A stretch of DNA of 64,000 nt from a bacterium (GCA_020350725.1 CP070719.1:308999-372998); one strand, 5' to 3'; positions 4,461 through 63,014 are shown, numbered from the stretch's first letter. Made by a program: numbers and translations. The notes: generated by a model from the letters alone, not told the origin.

Positions 4461-4576
4461 GGGACGGCCTCTCGGCAAGGTTTGGATATTTGGGTTCTTT
4501 CATGCGCCCGCTATTTTGCGCACCACCCATTATTCAGAAGAATGGCGGGAGAGGCAAGTCCTGTTCAGCCGCATCA

Positions 4577-4640
4577 GGTTCCAGATTCCAGGCTCCGGGT
4601 CCGAGGTTTCCGGATGATCTGAGAGTGCTCTGACCCCGTT
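4577..4640. repeat. heptamer tandem array (GGTTCCA-like x5) plus conserved tail GGATGATCTGAGAGTGCTCTGACCCCGT
   Basis: ggttcca gattcca ggctccg ggtccga ggtttcc, then ggatgatctgag + gtgctctgaccccgt. The same architecture recurs at 8284-8340. Confidence 0.6.
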
Positions 4641-4670
4641 ACGTTACCCCGTTACCCTCTGACTCTTAAT

Positions 4671-4707
4671 CCGTAGGTACGGGGTTCGATTCCCTGGCGG
4701 CTCACCA
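4671..4707 (+). other. tRNA 3'-half-like fragment (T-arm + acceptor 3' strand + ACCA); no matching 5' half
   Basis: cgggg-TTCGATT-ccctg followed by gcggctc-a-CCA. No complementary 5' acceptor strand (gagccgc) is found upstream. Confidence 0.35.
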
Positions 4708-4717
4708 GCCAATAAAA

Positions 4718-4752
4718 GGAGCCACTTCAGTCATCTGGAGCGGCTCTTTTTT
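4718..4752 (+). terminator. rho-independent terminator-like hairpin with T6 run
   Basis: gagccac...gagcggctc stem followed by tttttt. Confidence 0.45.
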
Positions 4753-4927
4753 AGGAGTTCCAAGTTTCAGGTTCAAGGTTCCAAGTTAGAGCGTAGTCGG
4801 ACTTGTCACGGCGCACCTCGATGAGCGAAGCCGGATTGCCCTTTAAAACCTCGATTATAAACACTTTATGAGCCCGGAATGAATGACCACCGGACCCATT
4901 CGCGGCGAGCATTCTGTTTGAGGCAGG

Positions 4928-5984: not shown

Positions 5985-6023
5985 TTGACAGGGATCTATT
6001 TAATACTGTACAGTACGGTACTA
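5985..6023 (+). promoter_or_regulatory. TTGACA -35-like hexamer plus GTAC-rich operator-like site upstream of tetR
   Basis: TTGACA at 5985-5990. tACTGTACAGTACGGTACT at 6004-6022 nearly matches the sites at 6927-6972. Confidence 0.45.
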
Positions 6024-6118
6024 AATTGAGTCTTTGCCCGGGCACTAACATTCGGTGATTCGCATGCGTCGTGCGGGCTATAAAAATTCGATTCGGAAGC
6101 CGGCAAGGAGGAAGCCCT

Positions 6119-6757
6119 TTGACCAGAGATGAGAGCACCGGAATATCGATGAACACGGCGGGGGAGAAAAGGCGCAAGGCCATCCTCGACGCGGCGTGGT
6201 CCCTTTTCCTCGAGAAGGGGTACGCCGCGGTCAGCGTGGATGAGATCATCCGCGCCTCAGGCGGGTCAAAGTCCTCTCTGTATAAATACTTCGGAAGCAA
6301 GGAGGGTATTCTCAAGGAACTCATAGAATCGTTTGCCGAAGACATGCTGACGGAAGTAAAGCTCCCGTTTCCGCTGGACAAAACCCCCGAGGCCACGCTC
6401 AAAAGAATTGGTCTTCGCATCGGTGGCATGGCTCTGTCCCCGTTCGCGATCAATCAATACAGACTTGCCGTATCCAACGCCAATCCTTTCCCGGAAATTG
6501 CCAGAATGTGGTATGAATTCGGCCCCAAAAAGACCTTTGACGGCCTTGCGGAGTATATGGAGAAGGTAGCTGAAGCAGGAAAGCTGACGATTAAAAACCC
6601 GGAAAGGGCTGCCCTGTTTTTCTTCGGGATGATCATATTCAAGGACAACATGGCCATGTCCATCGGAGCTCCACCTCCAACGGAAGCGGAACTGGAGGAG
6701 ATCGTGGATGAGGCAGTGAGGGTTTTTCTCGCCGCCTACGGGAGGGAGGAAGTCTAA
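6119..6757 (+). CDS. TetR/AcrR-family transcriptional regulator
   Basis: N-terminal HTH KRRKAILDAAWSLFLEKGYAAVSVDEIIRASGGSKSSLYKYF. A TTG at 6119 with an AAGGAGGA RBS 6 nt upstream is the likely start; the track GTG at 6071 has no RBS. Confidence 0.8.
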   Translation: MTRDESTGISMNTAGEKRRKAILDAAWSLFLEKGYAAVSVDEIIRASGGSKSSLYKYFGSKEGILKELIESFAEDMLTEVKLPFPLDKTPEATLKRIGLRIGGMALSPFAINQYRLAVSNANPFPEIARMWYEFGPKKTFDGLAEYMEKVAEAGKLTIKNPERAALFFFGMIIFKDNMAMSIGAPPPTEAELEEIVDEAVRVFLAAYGREEV

Positions 6758-6918: not shown

Positions 6919-6972
6919 TGACAAAGACTGTACGGTACGGTACTTATCTTTTTAGTACTGTACCGTACAGTC
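6919..6972 (+). promoter_or_regulatory. promoter (-35 TTGACA) overlapped by a large inverted repeat GACTGTACGGTACGGTACT / AGTACTGTACCGTACAGTC (operator)
   Basis: Near-perfect 19-nt inverted repeat at 6927-6944 and 6954-6972 around a TATCTTTTT centre. It lies immediately downstream of TTGACA (6919-6924) and upstream of the cytochrome gene at 7113. Confidence 0.55.
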
Positions 6973-7112
6973 TTTAGCGATATGCGCCGGCAAATGCATT
7001 TGAACTGAGGAGGTGACGCTGAAAGCAGATAGATAAAAAGAGGATTCAGTCCCATTGAGGAAGCAGAAGGAAACGGATCAATGAACATGACGACTTGACT
7101 TGAGAGGTACAG

Positions 7113-8167: not shown

Positions 8168-8242
8168 TGGTGCTCTGACCCCGTATACCGTGATGGTGCT
8201 CTGACCCCGTATACCCGCCGTATACCTGACCCCGTATACGTC
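8168..8242. repeat. tandem copies of GGTGCTCTGACCCCGTATACC (dispersed GTGCTCTGACCCCGT motif)
   Basis: ggtgctctgaccccgtatacc x2, then tgaccccgtatacg. The same 15-mer occurs at 401-415, 4626-4640 and 9980-9994, and as a TGCTCTGACCCCT variant at 9838-9870. Confidence 0.6.
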
Positions 8243-8283
8243 GCCACTCAGGGGAGGCTGTGAACTGGGACCTGGGTAATCGT

Positions 8284-8340
8284 TCCAGGCTCCCAGTTCC
8301 AGGTCCCAAATTGCAGGTTGCAGGTTTCCGGCTGATCTCA
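8284..8340. repeat. heptamer tandem array (x7) plus GGCTGATCTCAGG tail
   Basis: cgttcca ggctccc agttcca ggtccca aattgca ggttgca ggtttcc, then ggctgatctcagg. Confidence 0.6.
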
Positions 8341-8343
8341 GGA

Positions 8344-9780: not shown

Positions 9781-9837
9781 TCTCTGACAGCAACCCGGCC
9801 TGCGGCCTGAGCGGCCGTCACTCCGGTTTCCGGTTTC

Positions 9838-9880
9838 TGCTCTGACCCCTTTTCTCTGCTCTGACCCCTTTTCTCTTTTT
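9838..9880. repeat. tandem CTGCTCTGACCCCTTTTCTC x2
   Basis: Direct tandem duplication; a variant of the dispersed GTGCTCTGACCCC motif. Confidence 0.55.
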
Positions 9881-9896
9881 TCTTTTCCGAGATCAT

Positions 9897-9935
9897 CGTT
9901 CCAGGGTCCAGGTTCCATGTTCCAGGTTTCCCCGT
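9897..9935. repeat. heptamer tandem array (CGTTCCA GGGTCCA GGTTCCA TGTTCCA GGTTTCC)
   Basis: Period-7 degenerate repeats, same family as 4577 and 8284. Confidence 0.55.
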
Positions 9936-10114
9936 CCGGAGGACCGCGGTGGCGCGATAGGGATGGTGCTCAGGGATGGTGCTCTGACCCCGTTGTCCGT
10001 TGTCAGGCTCCGGGCCATTCCAACTCAAACTGCCGTTGCCTCCTGGCATCGGCAGCCTGGAAGAGGGTGGATGGCGAAGGTGGATGTTCTCTGTGGCAAA
10101 TCTCATTGCCCGCA

Positions 10115-12142: not shown

Positions 12143-12180
12143 AGTTCCGGATTCCAGGTTCCGGGTTCAACGTTCACGGT
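12143..12180. repeat. heptamer tandem array (GTTCCGG ATTCCAG GTTCCGG GTTCAAC GTTCACG)
   Basis: Same period-7 family. Confidence 0.5.
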
Positions 12181-12400
12181 GCCGAGTCGCTCCCTCTCCC
12201 ATGATCCCCTCCCTCCTGAGAGTCACAGAGGAGATCATGCATTTCTGGCCTCCGGGTTTTGGTCCCGCAAAAACCCTTATCCCCGTCAGTCCTCTCTGGC
12301 CCTCTGTGCTGTGGCATCGGGACTCTTAAGATGAATGTAAAAAGGAGGCCGAAAGGCCTCCTGAATTGGGAATCTGGGATTTGGACGCTGGAATCCGTCC

Positions 12401-23906: not shown

Positions 23907-24227
23907 ATGAAGATCACAGTGAGAAAAGACCTGTTCTGGGTCCTGTCCCTTGCCATGGCTTTCCTTCTGATCGCTCCCGCTTCGGTCCTATCTGACGACC
24001 AGGATCAGACACAGGATCGGATACGGGAAGGTCAGTACCAGGAAGAACAGGCCCGGCACCGCTTGATGATCAGGGTCCAACAGGATGCGGAGCTGGGCGT
24101 TACGGAATCGGACACCACGGAACCCGAGCAGAACCGGGAGCAGAACCAGGAGCAAAACCAGGAACAGTCTCAGGAACAGAACCAGGAGGGACCGGGCGGC
24201 GACAGCGGCAATGGCAACGGTAAGTGA
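23907..24227 (+). CDS. small secreted low-complexity protein with EQNQ repeats
   Basis: GAGGAGGAAG RBS, signal-like MKITVRKDLFWVLSLAMAFLLIAPASVLS, then Q/E-rich repeats (EQNREQNQEQNQEQSQEQNQE). Confidence 0.5.
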   Translation: MKITVRKDLFWVLSLAMAFLLIAPASVLSDDQDQTQDRIREGQYQEEQARHRLMIRVQQDAELGVTESDTTEPEQNREQNQEQNQEQSQEQNQEGPGGDSGNGNGK

Positions 24228-30080: not shown

Positions 30081-30165
30081 GCGAGAATGGCGGAACTGGC
30101 AGACGCGCTGGATTTAGGATCCAGTACCTAGCGGTGTGGGGGTTCGAATCCCCCTTCTCGCACCA
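30081..30165 (+). tRNA. tRNA-Leu (anticodon TAG)
   Basis: Acceptor gcgagaa/ttctcgc, anticodon stem ctgga/tccag with loop ttTAGga, long variable arm, T-loop GGTTCGAATCC, 3' ACCA. Confidence 0.85.
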
Positions 30166-30414
30166 CCCTTCGACAGGTTCAGGGTTGAAAATGAGTCAAC
30201 GATTGGATATCAGGGGGATGAGAACCCTGACCGAAGGTCACCGGTGAGCCTGTCCTGAACGGAGTGAAGGAAATCCCCCTTCTCGCACCACCCTTCGACA
30301 GGCTCAGGGTTGAAAATGGGTCTTCGATTGGATATCAGGGGGATGAGAACCCTGACCGAAGGTCACCGGTGAGCCTGTCCTGAACGGAGTGAAGGAAATC
30401 CCCCTTCTCGCACC
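30166..30414 (+). repeat. two tandem ~125-bp direct repeats, each ending in a copy of the tRNA-Leu 3' end (ATCCCCCTTCTCGCACC)
   Basis: Unit cccttcgacagg(t/c)tcagggttgaaaatg...gaaggaaatcccccttctcgcacc occurs twice (30166-30290, 30291-30414) with only a few substitutions. Confidence 0.8.
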
Positions 30415-30662: not shown

Positions 30663-32051
30663 ATGAAGATCAACGTTGAGAAGACGAGTGAGGTCGAGAG
30701 AAAGTTGAACGTGGAGATACCCTGGGAGACGGTCAGGGAGGAGATCGACCGAAGCCTGACAAAGATCCGCAGGACAGCCACCCTCAAGGGCTTCCGCAAG
30801 GGCAAGGCGCCCCTTGATCTGGTCCGCAGGATCTATTCCGATGACGCCCGCCAGGAGGCGATCAACGCCCTCGTCATGCGGGCCACAAGGCAGGCCCTGG
30901 ACCAACACAACCTGGAGCCCTACGGCAATCCCTACCTGACGGACGTCAGATCTGAAGACAATGAGCCGATGGTCTTTGAGGCGATGGTGGAGCTGTCCCC
31001 GAGATTCGAGGTGTCCGATTATCGCGGCCTGGTCCTGGAAAGGCCTTTCAGGGAGGTCACGAGCGGGGACGTGGATGGTTTTCTCTTCACGCTGAGAGAG
31101 CGCAATGCAGAGGCTGTCCCGGTTGAGGATGCAAGAGCCCTGAGGGACGGGGACGTGGCCACCGTGCACTTCAAGGGGTCCAAGGGCGGCGAGGTTCTCC
31201 AGGGTATGGATATCGATGACTTCGAGATCCGGCTGGGCAGAGAGCAGCTCATCCCGGGTTTCGAGGAGCAGATCGTCGGGATGAAAGCCGGCGAGAAGAG
31301 GGAGTTCGATCTTCCCTTCCCTGAGGAATACCCCCAGGAAAACCTTGCCGGAGAGACCGTCCACTTCGAGGTACTTCTCAAAGAGGTCAAAGAGATGAAG
31401 ATCCCGGACCTCAACGATGATTTCGCGAGGACCATTGGGGAGTTCGAAACTCTGGAAGATCTGAGAAAAAACATTCAGGATGACATGGATGAGGCGGCCA
31501 ATACCGAAGCGGAGAAAGCCCTGCGGGCCAACCTCACCCGAAGCCTTTTGGACAGCAACGTCTTCGAAGTTCCTCCCTCTCTCGTCGATAAGGAGATACG
31601 CTACCTGACCCAGGAGTATGGCGAGAATCTCCTGCGGGGAGGGCTCTCCAATGAAAAGGTCAGGGAGCTGATAATGGCCAATGAGGCTGATATCAAGAGG
31701 GCGGCCGGGGAGCACGTGCGCCTGATGTACCTGGTGAACAGGATCGCCGAAAAGGAGGAGATCAAAGCCGAACAGAAGGAGATCCTGAGTGTTGTCGCAC
31801 AGGCTGCCCAGCAGATGGGACGGCCGGTGAACGAACTCATGGACCAGTACAGCGAGGACGGCACGGTTAACGAGATCGCCTTCAATATCATCAGGAACAA
31901 GGTTTTCGACACCATCCTGGAGAGCGCAACGGTCAGTGACGTGAGATTGAAGGAAGGGGATACGGGTAAGACCGAGAACAGGTCCCAGGCGAAGACCAGG
32001 ACAAAGACAAAGCCTAAAAAGAAGGCTGATGCTGACGCGGAGTCGCGGTGA
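30663..32051 (+). CDS. tig: trigger factor
   Basis: MKINVEKTSEVERKLNVEIP..., PPIase domain GFRKGKAP. Conserved position upstream of clpP-clpX. Confidence 0.9.
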   Translation: MKINVEKTSEVERKLNVEIPWETVREEIDRSLTKIRRTATLKGFRKGKAPLDLVRRIYSDDARQEAINALVMRATRQALDQHNLEPYGNPYLTDVRSEDNEPMVFEAMVELSPRFEVSDYRGLVLERPFREVTSGDVDGFLFTLRERNAEAVPVEDARALRDGDVATVHFKGSKGGEVLQGMDIDDFEIRLGREQLIPGFEEQIVGMKAGEKREFDLPFPEEYPQENLAGETVHFEVLLKEVKEMKIPDLNDDFARTIGEFETLEDLRKNIQDDMDEAANTEAEKALRANLTRSLLDSNVFEVPPSLVDKEIRYLTQEYGENLLRGGLSNEKVRELIMANEADIKRAAGEHVRLMYLVNRIAEKEEIKAEQKEILSVVAQAAQQMGRPVNELMDQYSEDGTVNEIAFNIIRNKVFDTILESATVSDVRLKEGDTGKTENRSQAKTRTKTKPKKKADADAESR

Positions 32052-32131
32052 CACGGAGACACGGAGATTGTTCTCCCTGTCTTCCTGTCACCCCCCCTGT
32101 CGTTGAGCGAAAGAATCATTAGGAGCGAGAC

Positions 32132-44616: not shown

Positions 44617-46016
44617 TCTCCGGCATCCGGACCAGGTTTGTGTTTCTCTCCCTGGCCGCGGCGGTCTTTCTCTCCGCATGCGGTGGTGAAGAGGAGAAGG
44701 GGAGGCTGACCGTCGGTCTGAGCCTTCCCCCCGGTTGGCAGGACAGGCTAGACATGGGCGTCCTGTCAGCGCAGGGTTCGACGCCGTACATAGGCACGGT
44801 CAGGATCAGGATAACCTGCGGAGGGGTCGAAAGTTCGTGGGAGGCCCCCTGGGCCACGAGGAGCCTCTCTCTGGACGGTTTGGATCTTAAGGGAGGATGC
44901 GACATCCTGGCCCAGGCCGTCACCGCCGGAGCCGTCATCATGGAGCGGCAGCTGATCGACGTCCGGGTCGGGGATGGGGCGGACGTGCCGCTCGATATTC
45001 AGCTCGAGGAATCCGAGGGGTTCTCCGCGGCCGGAAGCCTGATAAATCCCAGACAGTACCACTCGGCGACGCCTCTCCCCGGTGGGGTCCTGATCGTCGG
45101 CGGCACCCTGGATACGGGCGCCATCGAGAGTATCTCCGCCACCGGCAGAGCATTGGCGGCTTCCGCCTACGGCTGTTCCCTTGTTACACCCAGGACCCGC
45201 CAGAGGGTCCTCCACGACGACGCCAACGGCCAGTTGTTTGTCTTCCTCGGCGGAATGGACGACAGCCAATATGAAATAATTTCTACTGATGATGGACAAT
45301 GCTATGGATATTCAATAGAAGGAAATAGAAAGAACTTCTTTCCGGCAATATATAAGCAATCAGTATTTTTGTTTGGTGGATACGATGTAATTAATGAGTG
45401 GATCATTAACACATTAGAGATTAATTCGAATTCTTTATCCGAAAATACGGTTTTTACCATGGGCATTCCGTCACCTAGACAAAATTTGCATTGTTTGGTT
45501 TCAGGTGTTTATCTGTCTTGTTTAGGTGGGATGGATGGTTCAAATTACCTCGCTGAAGTAAGTGTTATGGACTTAGAAAATGAAGTTAATAGAACGCAGC
45601 GTAGTTTATCTAAACCAAAAACCTCATTTGGAATGACGTCCTTGTCTGATGGGAGATTTTTACTAACTGGGGGTATAAATGGAAGTGGTTTCTTAAAAGA
45701 TGTTGAAATATTTGATCCAAATAATGGTCAAGTTATCGATTTTGGTGAAGCCTTGATATACCCAAGGACACGACATTCCGCAACTCTATTGTTAAATGAT
45801 ACAGTATTAGTTGTTGGTGGATTAGAATATACCGGTCCCTCTATATCAGCAGAGATCTTCGACCCCGCAACCGGCATCTCACGGGAGCTGCCTTGGCGGA
45901 TGCGGGTGCCGAGGGTAGGCCACACGGCCACCCTCCTTCCCGACGGAAGGGTCCTGATCGTCGGTGGGAATATGGGTGATAAAACCATCGAGGTGTTCAA
46001 TCCGAGGATAGACTGA
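44613..46016 (+). CDS. Kelch-repeat beta-propeller lipoprotein (mosaic composition)
   Basis: Lipobox LSACGG. Repeated GG-x-Y/F Kelch-like units (VGGTLDTG, LGGMDDS, FGGYD, LGGMDGS, TGGINGSG, VGGLEYTG, VGGNMGDK). An internal block at 45268-45855 is strongly AT-rich but in frame. Confidence 0.7.
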   Translation: MISGIRTRFVFLSLAAAVFLSACGGEEEKGRLTVGLSLPPGWQDRLDMGVLSAQGSTPYIGTVRIRITCGGVESSWEAPWATRSLSLDGLDLKGGCDILAQAVTAGAVIMERQLIDVRVGDGADVPLDIQLEESEGFSAAGSLINPRQYHSATPLPGGVLIVGGTLDTGAIESISATGRALAASAYGCSLVTPRTRQRVLHDDANGQLFVFLGGMDDSQYEIISTDDGQCYGYSIEGNRKNFFPAIYKQSVFLFGGYDVINEWIINTLEINSNSLSENTVFTMGIPSPRQNLHCLVSGVYLSCLGGMDGSNYLAEVSVMDLENEVNRTQRSLSKPKTSFGMTSLSDGRFLLTGGINGSGFLKDVEIFDPNNGQVIDFGEALIYPRTRHSATLLLNDTVLVVGGLEYTGPSISAEIFDPATGISRELPWRMRVPRVGHTATLLPDGRVLIVGGNMGDKTIEVFNPRID

Positions 46017-46040
46017 TCCAAAATCCAAAGTCCGAAACCC

Positions 46041-46067
46041 CAAAATAAAAACCGGCCACAGGCCGGT
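46041..46067 (-). terminator. hairpin ACCGGCC-aca-GGCCGGT with T-rich tract on the minus strand (bidirectional terminator candidate)
   Basis: Located between convergent genes ending at 46016 (+) and 46147 (-). Confidence 0.55.
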
Positions 46068-54431: not shown

Positions 54432-54462
54432 GTTCACCGTTCACGGTTCACAGTTGAGACCG
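54432..54462. repeat. heptamer tandem array (GGTTCAC CGTTCAC GGTTCAC AGTTGAG)
   Basis: Period-7 repeat in the 410-bp glmU-permease intergenic region. The region also contains short tandem repeats gtgattagtgattcgtaatttgtgattcg and ctctggaccctgacctctggactctggactc. Confidence 0.5.
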
Positions 54463-54816
54463 CCGTGATTAGTGATTCGTAATTTGTGATTCGTTTTTCC
54501 CCGCGTCCCCGCGTCTGATGTCCAGGTCCCACGTCTTATTTTCCAGGTATTGACTGTGAACCCTTCGACGGGCTCAGGGCAGGCTGTGAACTGGGAACCA
54601 TCTCCTTCGCCCCCTCGCATTTCCGTGTCTCCGCGCCCTCTCTGGACCCTGACCTCTGGACTCTGGACTCATTTCTTCCCCCCTCCCTATCATGCGGTAT
54701 CTTTGCCGGGATCATTTGTGTAAGATGTCCCGGGGTATCCGAGGAAGATCCACGACCGGCACAATCCGTCGCACAGAAGGGGAAACGTTATGGCGGGACA
54801 AGGGAGGGCCAACCAT

Positions 54817-56955: not shown

Positions 56956-58089
56956 ATGAGTGAATTTATAGAGATCCTGAAATGGGTCGATGAGTCCGGA
57001 AATGAGATGGTCCACAGGGTTCCACCGGAGGGAATGGGTGAGATCAAGTTCGGTGCTCAGCTGATCGTCCACGAGAACCAGGCTGCTGTGTTCTTCCGCG
57101 ACGGAAAGGCGCTGGATGTCCTGGGTCCGGGAAGACACACCCTGACGACCCAGAATCTCCCCCTTCTCACCAAGGCTCTCAGTCTGCCCTTCACCTTTGA
57201 GAGCCCCTTCAAGGTTGCGGTCTACTTCGTAGCCATGAAAACCTTCACCAAGCTCACCTGGGGAACCCGTGATCCGGTGGCTTTCAGGGACAGCGAGCTG
57301 GGTATGGTGCGGCTGAGGGGTCACGGCAATTTCACCATCCGGATCGTGCAGCCCATGCTCTTTGTCAATGTCCTCGCCGGCACGCAGGGTATCTACGCAA
57401 CCGAGGAAATATCTGATTTCCTGAGGGCGATCATCGTATCGCGGATCAACGATCTTCTGGGTGAAAGCCTGGAGACGCTCATTGATCTGCCCCGGGTCTA
57501 CGATGAATTGGGTGCCGCCGTCAAGGCGAGGGTAAGGGATGAGTTCCTCAAATACGGTATAGAGTTGAGGGATTTGATCATCCGTTCCATTACCCCTCCG
57601 GATGATGTCCAGCGCATCATCGATGAACGCGGAAGCATGCGAGCCGTCGGGGAGAGGGACTATTTGCGTTTCAAAGCGGCCCAGTTCATGGGTGAAGCCG
57701 GACGGGGTGTGGGTGAGGAAGGGACAAGTACGGCCGAATCCGGGATGGGACTGGGACTCGGGGCCGGTTTCGGTATGATGGTCCCCGCATTCCTGAAAGG
57801 AGCCCTGGAGGGAAAGGTTCCGGGCGATATGGGGGGAAGCCAGTCGTGTCCGCAATGTCAGGTCACCTTGCCGGGCGAGGCCCGATTCTGTTTCCGGTGC
57901 GGAACGCCGGTCATCAGAGGGCAGGTTTGCTCCCTGTGCGGCCAGGATCTTCCATCTGACGCCAGGTTCTGCAGCCGATGCGGAGAGGAGATCAAGAAAC
58001 GGAAGGTCGACTGCCCCAACTGCGGGAAGAAGGCACCTGAAGGGGCCCGTTTCTGCCTCCACTGCGGAGGAAAGATGGGAGATGACTAG
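56956..58089 (+). CDS. SPFH/band-7 domain protein with C-terminal array of zinc ribbons (COG4260-like)
   Basis: N-terminal SPFH-like domain ([44 protein letters not shown]). Four CxxC pairs at the C-terminus (CPQCQ/CFRCG, CSLCG/CSRCG, CPNCG/CLHCG). Confidence 0.6.
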
Positions 58090-58195
58090 GGATTGGAGAT
58101 CAGACATTGAAGATTAGCGGTTAGGCATTGAAGATCAGACATTAGACATTAGAGATTAGGGATTGAGCGGTAGAGACAAGAGATTGGAAAAGAGA
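58088..58195. repeat. 15-copy heptamer tandem array (AGATTAG-like)
   Basis: agatcag acattga agattag cggttag gcattga agatcag acattag acattag agattag ggattga gcggtag agacaag agattgg. Strict period 7, degenerate. Confidence 0.7.
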
Positions 58196-58338
58196 GGGTG
58201 GAAAGCAGGAATCGCCGATCAGGGACCGGGATAGTCCTTTGTCCCGGCCTTAGCCCCTTTACCTCGGGTACCAGGTTCCCTTGCCCTCGGAGCGGGATCT
58301 CCGGGGCCCGGGCGGGGCCGTAAAGTGGGCACTCCATT

Positions 58339-62865: not shown

Positions 62866-62880
62866 ATTTCAGGGGACAGC

Positions 62881-62950
62881 CCCAGATCCAAGATCCGAAG
62901 TCCAGAGGGTGTTTTCGAAGTCGAGCATAACTCAGCCTTGATTTTGGATC
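62881..62950. repeat. heptamer-period repeat with inverted copy
   Basis: agatcca agatccg aagtcca ... followed by ttggatcttgg (inverted). Confidence 0.4.
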
Positions 62951-63014
62951 TTGGAATTTACATGTTGGATTCAATTGGGGCCGCCGCACCTTCATAGAAA
63001 GGAAGAGAGAACGA

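Follow-up and report, generated by a model that had tools for sequence, protein, structure and literature searches.

The intergenic DNA of the window (the whole 64,000-nucleotide stretch of bacterial DNA that was analysed) carries tandem arrays of degenerate 7-nt units, which we read, with a probability of roughly 0.6, as heptanucleotide simple-sequence repeats that arise by tandem duplication and then decay, in the same class as the STRR, GGGAATC, TAACTGA and four-heptad elements. The two parts of this reading differ in strength: the assignment to heptameric simple-sequence repeats is well supported, and the mode of origin is moderately supported. A preliminary description of the window had listed seven such loci; all seven proved to be 7-nt periodic, at or within 1-3 nt of where they had been placed, with the correction that one of them (62881-62950) is an inverted pair and not one array.

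Period-7 arrays in the intergenic DNA of the window

A lag-7 region was scored wherever at least 15 of 21 bases equalled the base 7 positions further on, with first-order Markov shuffles as the control. Twelve such regions occur in the window (shuffle mean, 0.43), and three at a stricter 17/21 threshold, versus none in 50 shuffles. Lags of 4, 5, 8, 10, 11 and 13, which are not multiples of 3, gave 0-2 regions each, and lag 14 gave nine (≥15/21). Autocorrelation, set beforehand as the test that could refute the periodicity, gave a period of 7: in pooled intergenic DNA, base identity is 0.303 at lag 7, 0.293 at lag 14 and 0.276 at lag 21 (background, ~0.255), and in coding DNA the same autocorrelation returned period 3 only. 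Independently, TRF detected period 7 at seven places in the window (9898-9928, 12144-12168, 46016-46046, 54432-54455, 54465-54491, 54640-54670 and 58087-58164), with 61-88% matches among the degenerate units. Eleven of the 12 lag-7 regions are intergenic, versus an intergenic share of 14% for the window as a whole (on a rough gene call, later corrected). The 7-nt period is genuine and restricted to intergenic sequence, and the head-to-tail iteration of 7-nt units beyond chance places these arrays in the heptanucleotide class of long simple-sequence repeats (LSSR).

The arrays are spread over the window at 4.5-12.4, 46, 54, 58 and 63 kb (plus strand, unless stated otherwise). Five units, GGTTCCA GATTCCA GGCTCCG GGTCCGA GGTTTCC, make up the array at 4577-4611 (lag-7 scan), the end of which forms, with a tail, the stretch GGTTTCCGGATGATCTGAG (4605-4623); a terminator-like hairpin with a T-run (4712-4750) separates this array from a second one in the same spacer, of AGTTCCA type (about 4754-4790; lag-7 scan), which is new relative to the preliminary description. 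An array of about seven GTTCCAG-type units that ends in GGTTTCCGGCTGATCTCAG lies at 8282-8341 (lag-7 scan), and five units of GTTCCAG type, which end in GGTTTCC, at 9897-9931 (TRF and lag-7 scan), with an inverted copy of the tail (GAGATCATC, 9885-9893) on its 5' side. Some 40 nt upstream of a DUF6599 gene, the lag-7 scan located the units GTTCCGG ATTCCAG GTTCCGG GTTCAAC GTTCACG (12143-12177). Further arrays that had not been described before are GGATTCC AGCGTCC AAATCCC AGATTCC CAATTCA on the minus strand (12362-12396), an ATCCAAA-type array that starts at the stop codon of a Kelch gene (46015-46045; TRF and lag-7), a GTGATTA/GTGATTC-type array for which period 14 is the better fit (54465-54494; TRF and lag-7) and a CTCTGGA-type array (AGAGTCC on the minus strand; 54640-54670; TRF and lag-7); a GGTTCAC-type array occupies 54432-54459 (TRF and the 17/21 scan). 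The longest array of the window, about 15 AGATTAG-like units, runs from the stop codon of an SPFH gene (58087-58195; TRF and lag-7). It had been described as a 15-copy heptamer array; the array is present, but periods of 35 (82% matches) and 21 (71%) fit it better than 7 does (61%). The inverted pair at 62884-62958, to which no strand is assigned, consists of three AGATCCA-type units (62884-62904) and three of the complementary type (62940-62958), and forms a hairpin just past a stop codon.

Array length across the lineage has a median of 5.3 units, without a peak at four; the longest detected region spans 11.6 units, and the A+T content of the arrays exceeds that of the genome (55% vs 43%). 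That the arrays form a related family, as first proposed, was borne out by their units: consensus units lie at a mean minimal distance of 2.73, versus 3.20 +/- 0.05 for composition-matched random heptamers, rotations and strands considered, and AGGTTCC with at most one substitution covers six window arrays. A vocabulary of GATTCCA, GGTTCAA, GTCCAAG, GTGATTC, GGATCAC and GAGATCT recurs across genera; unrelated units (TGTACTA, CTTCGAA, AGTTTCT) are also used in many arrays. Within the window, the repeat scan showed the 4577 and 8284 arrays (the latter within 8282-8341) to be paralogous over 46 nt, non-repeat tail included. Their common 19-nt end, GGTTTCCGG(A/C)TGATCT(G/C)AG, had been noticed earlier and is real: it is found at exactly two loci of the window, where 0.07 are expected by chance. 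The tail corresponds to one and a half GAGATCT-type units, a type that forms whole arrays in two relatives (L005 and L006), and small modules such as GGCTGTGAACTGGGA recur beside arrays.

Another feature of the arrays is the order within them. Identity between units falls with their separation, from 0.69 for neighbours to 0.63, 0.58, 0.49 and 0.36 at two to five units, a trend that is partly inflated by edge effects and by array detection. Periods of 14, 21 or 35 beat 7 in several arrays (TRF), L006 displays block structures such as (GGAATAA)3(GGAATAG)4, and runs of three to four perfect units occur in L006 and L148. Taken together, the decay of identity, the blocks and the higher-order periods suggest local duplication of one or several units, followed by decay; this anatomy is what would be expected of tandem duplication, and probably not of units each independently selected for one binding motif.

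Several specific roles for the units were considered and set aside. Four-base palindromes are not enriched (0.0567 in arrays vs 0.0584), contrary to arrays of methylation or restriction sites; the main GGTTCCA and GATTCCA units contain no stop triplet on either strand, as a stop codon in all frames would require; and GGAAC, as a -35 box for an ECF sigma factor, has no matching -10 element, the arrays lying mostly at 3' ends.

Distribution, turnover and position in the host lineage

The window is ordinary chromosome (tig-clpP-clpX-lon, glmU, an SPFH/NfeD operon, an ECF sigma factor, a TetR gene and three tRNAs), and the genes that neighbour its arrays are housekeeping genes. Its ClpX is 85-95% identical to many environmental sequences, and among named groups the closest (72-76%) are Syntrophobacteria and other Thermodesulfobacteriota, and Tectomicrobia. 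The SPFH protein marks the same group as ClpX (≥74% identity, with the next drop to 58%). The host lineage is uncultured and Desulfobacterota-like.

We covered 64 kb of the source genome and ~125 kb of relatives, the related loci being retrieved via three genes, and these 189 kb contain 53 arrays. There are 11 arrays in 21 kb of L006 (CP070698.1, 'bin582'), 5 in 15 kb of L003 (GCA_029210965.1) and 13 in 21 kb of L145-147 (three JGI contigs), where nearly every larger spacer is occupied; heptamer arrays are abundant in L144 (GCA_041553975.1) and present at lower density in L148, L150, L005 and L022. Desulfobulbales-like outgroup loci that carry the same aldo-keto reductase yielded one array in ~0.21 Mb and lack the intergenic lag-7 peak, which is found only in the lineage. 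Unrelated metagenome contigs (675 kb) gave 17 arrays, no more than neighbouring lags give. Heptamer arrays are a trait of the whole lineage: they extend beyond one region and beyond one genome, and are not the purely local duplication that the preliminary description had kept in view. Bearing in mind that two Logan contigs from independent assemblies of the window's own population (L001 and L023) contain identical arrays, these are not assembly artefacts.

The comparative check that had been proposed at the outset found arrays in related genomes, with presence or absence varying at orthologous spacers. Synteny of the operon glmU ... SPFH - 438-aa gene - NfeD - band 7 extends over five genomes, in which the spacer after SPFH takes five forms. 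In the window it is 249 nt long and contains the 15-unit AGATTAG array; in L144 it is 158 nt, with an AGAATAG array that is orthologous and can be aligned; in L145 it is 210 nt, with another array (CCTTGGA); in L150 it is 19 nt, with no array; and in L148 the genes overlap by 4 nt, which leaves neither spacer nor array. The comparison of orthologous spacers thus indicates that arrays make up much of the spacer length. Between the convergent pyrimidine-dimer-glycosylase and G6PD genes, arrays occur in L145, L148 and L150, with different units in each; upstream of DUF6599, CCTGGAA-type arrays share orientation and position in the window and L003; and downstream of the aldo-keto reductase, arrays lie at or near the stop codon in L005 and L006 and are absent from L003. 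Arrays persist at a site over moderate divergence and are replaced over larger divergence; position is kept as sequence turns over.

Over the shortest distances, no change in unit number was detected. The arrays of the window and of L001 and L023 are 100% identical; L003 and L004 (99.93% identity) differ by no indels at all; and L145-147 (≥99.98%) have indels elsewhere and none in their 13 arrays. This constancy of unit number among close strains rules out hypermutable contingency loci, although all of these strains are too close to measure slower slippage.

Folding and position set two kinds of array apart. Inverted pairs were located in the window (62884/62940), in L006 (14025/14076 and 17228/17293), L145 (9895-9975), L148 (15801/15866) and L097, and the hairpins that they are predicted to form are more stable than those of shuffled sequences: z = -10.7 and -62 kcal/mol in L148 (15795-15925, followed by U8), -6.8 in L097, -4.3 in L006 (14018-14125), -4.0 in L145 (9890-9985, operon-internal) and -3.65 in the window (62866-62970). 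In contrast, single arrays have z-scores of +1.44 (58085-58200), +1.76 (9890-9940) and +0.57 (4570-4625), that is, they are as unstructured as shuffles, or more so. The folding check suggested earlier is thus answered differently for inverted pairs (z = -3.65 to -10.7) and for single arrays (z = +0.6 to +1.8), and the models point to two structural classes, hairpin-forming inverted pairs and unstructured single arrays.

Across the lineage, 45 of the 48 arrays that could be placed are intergenic. Convergent spacers contain 14 arrays in 2.4 kb, tandem spacers 23 in 16 kb and divergent spacers 8 in 4.8 kb; array density per nucleotide is about fourfold higher in convergent spacers, i.e., at gene 3' ends. 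Several arrays start at a stop codon or no more than 20 nt from it, ahead of a terminator: on the plus strand, the order is stop codon, array (46015-46045) and a separate GC-rich hairpin (46051-46067), and on the minus strand it is stop codon, array (12396-12362, unpaired in the fold) and an intrinsic terminator (12362-12343) with a hairpin z of -4.4. Strand bias had been thought worth checking in the preliminary description. Most window arrays lie nearer their 5' neighbour, in accord with the rule known from Xanthomonas (PMC4692102), but this rule fails across the lineage, where the 5' gene is the closer one for 16 arrays and the 3' gene for 17. A Rho-site composition was also rejected, the sense strand ranging from C-rich to purine-only.

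In a search of the whole window against Rfam, only the three tRNAs passed the gathering threshold, and between 4440 and 4860 nothing credible emerged at E ≤ 10. Neither ARAGORN nor Rfam recognised a tRNA or tmRNA at 4661-4710; this segment is a tRNA-like 3' fragment, an orphan with no relationship to the three tRNAs of the window.

Known heptamer repeats and competing explanations

The nearest counterparts of these arrays are the GGGAATC / GGGGA(C/T)T heptamers that Rehm et al. (2015, PMC4692102) described in Xanthomonas and Nostoc, which are likewise intergenic, single or in inverted pairs that form stem-loops, and placed near stop codons or upstream of genes. Xanthomonas campestris has 186 GGGAATC-type arrays of 2-26 units in a genome of ~5 Mb; 89% are intergenic, seventy are in close inverted pairs, and they often lie within 50 nt of a stop codon; they show no tie to gene class or mobile elements, are not phase-variable and have no known function (PMC4692102). 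Between related species, such arrays occupy the same spacer and vary in length and sequence; the same source also records that Helicobacter pylori has GTGATTA repeats and Calothrix three heptamers (PMC4692102). The units themselves are close: a single base separates GATTCCA of the window from GATTCCC, which is complementary to the Xanthomonas GGGAATC, exact GATTCCC/GGGAATC units occur in L005 and L097, and the GTGATTA at 54465 is the Helicobacter unit. The lineage differs from Xanthomonas in its density (0.19-0.62 arrays per kb vs ~0.04, about 5-17 times higher), in the larger number of unit types per genome, in phylum and in its small genome (2-2.8 Mb).

Comparable elements are known from other groups. 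TAACTGA forms abundant intergenic direct repeats of 2-6 copies in marine Beggiatoaceae (MacGregor 2015, PMC4679880), and is similarly present in one lineage and absent from close relatives; the units here are, however, diverse, and the arrays densest at gene 3' ends. Geobacter metallireducens has 49 copies of a four-heptad element with the consensus GGACCGG (Aklujkar et al. 2009, PMC2700814), again multicopy tandem heptanucleotides in a deltaproteobacterial-type genome, and absent in a relative; these differ in having a fixed four units, in being GC-rich and in lying also inside genes. As cited in PMC4679880, the Mrazek 2007 survey found that heptamers outnumber all other long simple-sequence repeats in most repeat-rich prokaryotes, and offered the idea that they are perhaps favoured because the polymerase interacts with a stretch of 7 nt. 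The 7-nt periodicity with a drifting sequence, at first thought unusual, is thus behaviour already published for heptameric repeats (PMC4692102, PMC4679880). One subclass does not extend to the window: its criterion, four or more GGG tracts in succession and a prevalence of four-unit arrays, describes potential G-quadruplexes, and window units have GG at most (TGGAACC, TGGAATC), so that an argument from four G-tracts is inapplicable to units with mostly GG. All features match published heptameric simple-sequence repeats, and we therefore assign the arrays to a known class and not to a new one.

In heterocystous cyanobacteria, the STRR heptanucleotides CCCCAGT, TTGGTCA and CAACAGT were reportedly described by Mazel et al. 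in 1990. As with the STRR, there are several heptamers per genome here, in tandem and non-coding, with no known function; the unit sequences are unrelated, and membership is by analogy only. Two other kinds of repeat invite comparison. Inverted array pairs resemble REP/BIME elements in their position at 3' ends and in convergent and operon-internal spacers, and in their stable hairpins. They lack, however, a 20-40-nt palindromic unit (none emerged from repeat scans of the window), a GTAG-type head and, among the window genes scanned, an associated RAYT gene, the hairpin arms being built of 7-nt tandem units, and the initial view that the arrays are not REP/BIME-like holds. Unlike the direct repeats read by SARP/OmpR-type regulators, heptamers ~11 bp apart upstream of promoters, the units here are contiguous, with a period of 7, and densest in convergent spacers.

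We hypothesize that the arrays would begin from a small seed set of expansion-prone heptamers, such as G[GA]TTCCA, GGTTCAA, GTGATTC and GAGATCT. Replication slippage or unequal exchange would duplicate one or several units in 7-nt register, and point mutation would erode the arrays and give rise to the drifting sequence. Arrays accumulate where they are tolerated or useful, in non-coding spacers and chiefly at gene 3' ends. There, inverted arrays could supply the arms of long hairpins, either terminator-like or RNA-stabilising stems of the REP type, and single arrays could serve as structure-free spacers from stop codon to true terminator, or upstream of a start codon; we infer these terminator and spacer roles only from position and predicted folding. 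The likeness of units across arrays and genera is above chance, a point against pure slippage from arbitrary seeds, and could stem from a factor that selects for sequence or from a shared template. Slippage was not seen in action, near-identical strains having the same unit number, in comparisons at ≥99.9% identity.

We also entertain, as an improbable speculation, that a dedicated 7-nt-register mechanism makes the arrays and uses them as modules, i.e., as hairpin arms and 3'-UTR spacers. Such a mechanism could be a property of replication or repair, or a protein able to recognise heptad-periodic nucleic acid with little regard to its sequence. If so, the nearly identical heptamers (GATTCCC/GGGAATC, GTGATTA) of Xanthomonas, Nostoc, Helicobacter and this lineage would share one molecular cause. 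The preference of many bacteria for heptamers, and whether such arrays have any role, have been open questions since 1990 (STRR) and 2007 (the LSSR survey). With many unit types and up to ~0.6 arrays per kb in a small genome, this lineage is unusually rich in them; since its members range from array-rich to array-poor, and have syntenic operons with arrays or without a spacer, it is a good comparative system in which to seek the source of the 7-nt register, and to ask if inverted arrays work as terminators. In annotation, arrays that are recognised as such will no longer be mistaken for regulatory sites, small RNAs or mobile elements.

Two readings of the arrays had been put forward in the preliminary description, as protein-binding arrays or a small-RNA family, and neither is favoured by these results: units change between orthologous spacers, identity decays along arrays, single arrays are poor in structure and Rfam returns no family. 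At the RNA level, the arrays would be unstructured repeats of 3' or 5' UTRs that recruit Rho, CsrA, Csp or an S1-like protein, if not a small-RNA family. This accords with the arrays that start no more than 20 nt from a stop codon and precede a terminator, and with single arrays less structured than shuffles; some sense strands are C-rich and G-poor (46015, the minus strand at 12396, and L006 at 5763), the pyrimidine tract and 15-mer copies at 9837-9889 resemble a Rho loading site, and a similar idea has been proposed for the TAACTGA repeats (PMC4679880). We nevertheless regard it as unlikely, given the even split of 16 vs 17 over strand, sense compositions that extend to purine-only (58087 and L144), and small RNAs that no promoter-plus-terminator units delimit. 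Similarly improbable is that the arrays are DNA platforms on which a lineage-specific nucleoid-associated protein or global regulator reads TTCCA/GTTCA-like heptads in a 7-bp register. A unit vocabulary common to arrays and genera beyond chance speaks for such a protein, and similar proposals exist for the four-heptad elements of Geobacter and the heptamers of Nostoc, but it would have to tolerate orthologous spacers with wholly different units (AGATTAG, CCTTGGA) or none, as well as the many arrays of unrelated units; furthermore, the arrays are densest between convergent genes, where promoters are lacking, and at a spacing of 7 bp one site and the next do not lie on the same face of the helix.

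Lower still in probability is a single composite element, mobile or REP/MITE-like, in which array, tail and 15-mer spread through spacers as one. The 46 nt common to the 4577 and 8284 arrays, the 15-mer that accompanies arrays in three spacers and the small modules that recur beside them could all be taken for its parts; their order, however, differs in each locus, neither terminal inverted repeats nor target duplications are present, most arrays (those at 46-63 kb and all those in relatives) are without the 15-mer, and no transposase or RAYT gene is among the window genes scanned. We give hardly any credence to contingency loci, i.e., to hypermutable gain and loss of units that switches neighbouring genes. 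Tandem repeats near the starts and ends of genes, and the perfect runs of three to four units in L006 and L148, are what would bring such switches to mind; the units are nonetheless degenerate, their number is the same in independent assemblies of the same populations, the neighbours are housekeeping genes, and the Xanthomonas repeats were likewise judged not to be phase-variable (PMC4692102). Tandem duplication followed by decay is the reading that we retain.

The 15-mer GTGCTCTGACCCCGT

The preliminary description had linked the arrays to the 15-mer GTGCTCTGACCCCGT. Its copies are present, at coordinates 1-3 nt away from those first reported, but the link to the arrays did not prove general. 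Seven or eight copies, variants included, all on the plus strand, are confined to four spacers in the first 10 kb of the window: one at 4625-4639; a variant, GTGCTCTGACCCCGG, with no array nearby (408-422); two full copies (8170-8184 and 8196-8210) with a short one, CTGACCCCGTATAC (8226-8239), in the stretch 8170-8239; variants at 9837-9851 and 9856-9870, within 2.2 copies of a 19-nt unit that includes CTGCTCTGACCCCTT (9836-9876; TRF), followed by the pyrimidine tract to 9889; and a copy at 9979-9993 that falls within a 13-nt tandem duplication (9959-9984; TRF). In the three spacers where it co-occurs with arrays, the order of modules varies: array, tail and 15-mer at 4577-4639; 15-mers, other sequence, array and tail at 8170-8341; variant 15-mers, inverted tail, array and 15-mer at 9837-9993. 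The motif is absent beside the window arrays at 46-63 kb and beside every array of the relatives, whose genomic loci lack it altogether. The 15-mer is a separate, local short repeat and not part of the arrays, and its association with them is local.

A metagenome scan for doublets of its 11-nt core, GCTCTGACCCC, returned at least 120 matches, and the contigs listed range from 35 to 71% G+C. Unselected DNA has 110-130 doubled 11-mer positions per Mb, so that tens of chance matches are expected for any 11-mer, to which redundancy among samples adds more; away from selected sites, the core is only about threefold enriched. Contigs that carry the core have no excess of heptamer arrays, and a literature search for the 11-mer found primer sequences only. 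Among the matches listed, the flanks of the core doublets belong to a small number of unrelated sub-families, some of which could form hairpins. In the window, the copies of the 15-mer are pyrimidine-rich, and all but one of the eight follow plus-strand genes, in the sense orientation; they may have a role in 3' UTRs or in Rho loading.

Density of the heptamer arrays and composition of their spacers

The density of the intergenic, degenerate 7-nt tandem arrays varies more than 10-fold among members of this lineage, on comparison of L016 (CP070682.1, 'bin676') with the window, L006 (CP070698.1, 'bin582') and L145, all from genomes of the same lineage: approximately one array per 21 kb is present in L016, as against 11–13 in L006 and L145, with three in each of two further lineage loci, L148 and L150. 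Among the lineage members compared, where spacers are free of arrays, the corresponding genes abut or overlap.

Additional short dispersed repeats are also present in array-bearing spacers: the module GGCTGTGAACTGGGA(A)CC occurs at 8258–8280 and 54585–54603 of the window, and CCCTTCGAC(A/G)GGCTCAGGG at 30167, 30292 and 54563. Array-bearing spacers look like mosaics of small repeats. Two other tandem repeats are not members of the heptamer family: four copies of the period-8 repeat GACACGGA in the tig–clpP spacer (32034–32093), and five copies of a 12-nt repeat within a small coding region (24126–24188).

tRNA-related sequences

At 30081–30414, a 125-bp unit is repeated 2.1 times with 97% identity. 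Each unit opens with the final 19 nt of tRNA-Leu(tag), which is why AATCCCCCTTCTCGCACCA appears three times (30147, 30272 and 30397); the unit also contains the inverted modules CCCTTCGACAGGCTCAGGG and GTGAGCCTGTCCTGAACGG. This repeat resembles a small insertion element, one that has twice duplicated the 3' end of the tRNA.

An orphan tRNA-like 3' fragment (within 4661–4750) lies beside a copy of the 15-mer, the short local repeat of the window's first 10 kb: it comprises a T-arm (GGGGTTCGATTCCC), the 3' strand of an acceptor stem and ACCA, followed by a strong terminator hairpin and T-run. Its 5' half is absent, and it was called neither as a tRNA nor as a tmRNA. This fragment could be what remains of the att site of an integrated element; alternatively, it could form the 3' terminus of a small transcript from the plus strand. 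The ACGGGGT of its T-arm is complementary to ACCCCGT in the adjoining 15-mer.

The 11-nt core of the 15-mer in metagenome contigs

Among the matches listed (L024–L143), the core GCTCTGACCCC forms tandem doublets or arrays in metagenome contigs of 35–71% G+C (e.g., L035 5680–7070; L084 4100–4240; L097 5077–5180), sometimes with copies on both strands, 110–150 bp apart. In several sub-families among these matches, the flanks pair around a CTCTGAC loop (AAAAGGG...CCCTTTT, AATCGGG...CCCGATT and CAAGGG...CCCTTG). The number of matches (at least 120 metagenome loci) is not clearly greater than chance, and we found no mention of this motif in the literature.

Candidate regulatory sequences

The 21-nt motif AATACTGTACAGTACGGTACT lies upstream (6002–6022) of a TetR-family gene (6071–6757), and recurs as a 22-nt inverted pair, 95% complementary, just 3' of that gene and before a cytochrome c'-like gene (6923–6975); these sites are probably operators of the TetR-family repressor. 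In the 3' region of an ECF sigma-factor gene, a 52-nt tract (9837–9889) consists of two 19-nt units and then a T/C run; being ~85% pyrimidine with only four G, its composition resembles that of a Rho loading site.
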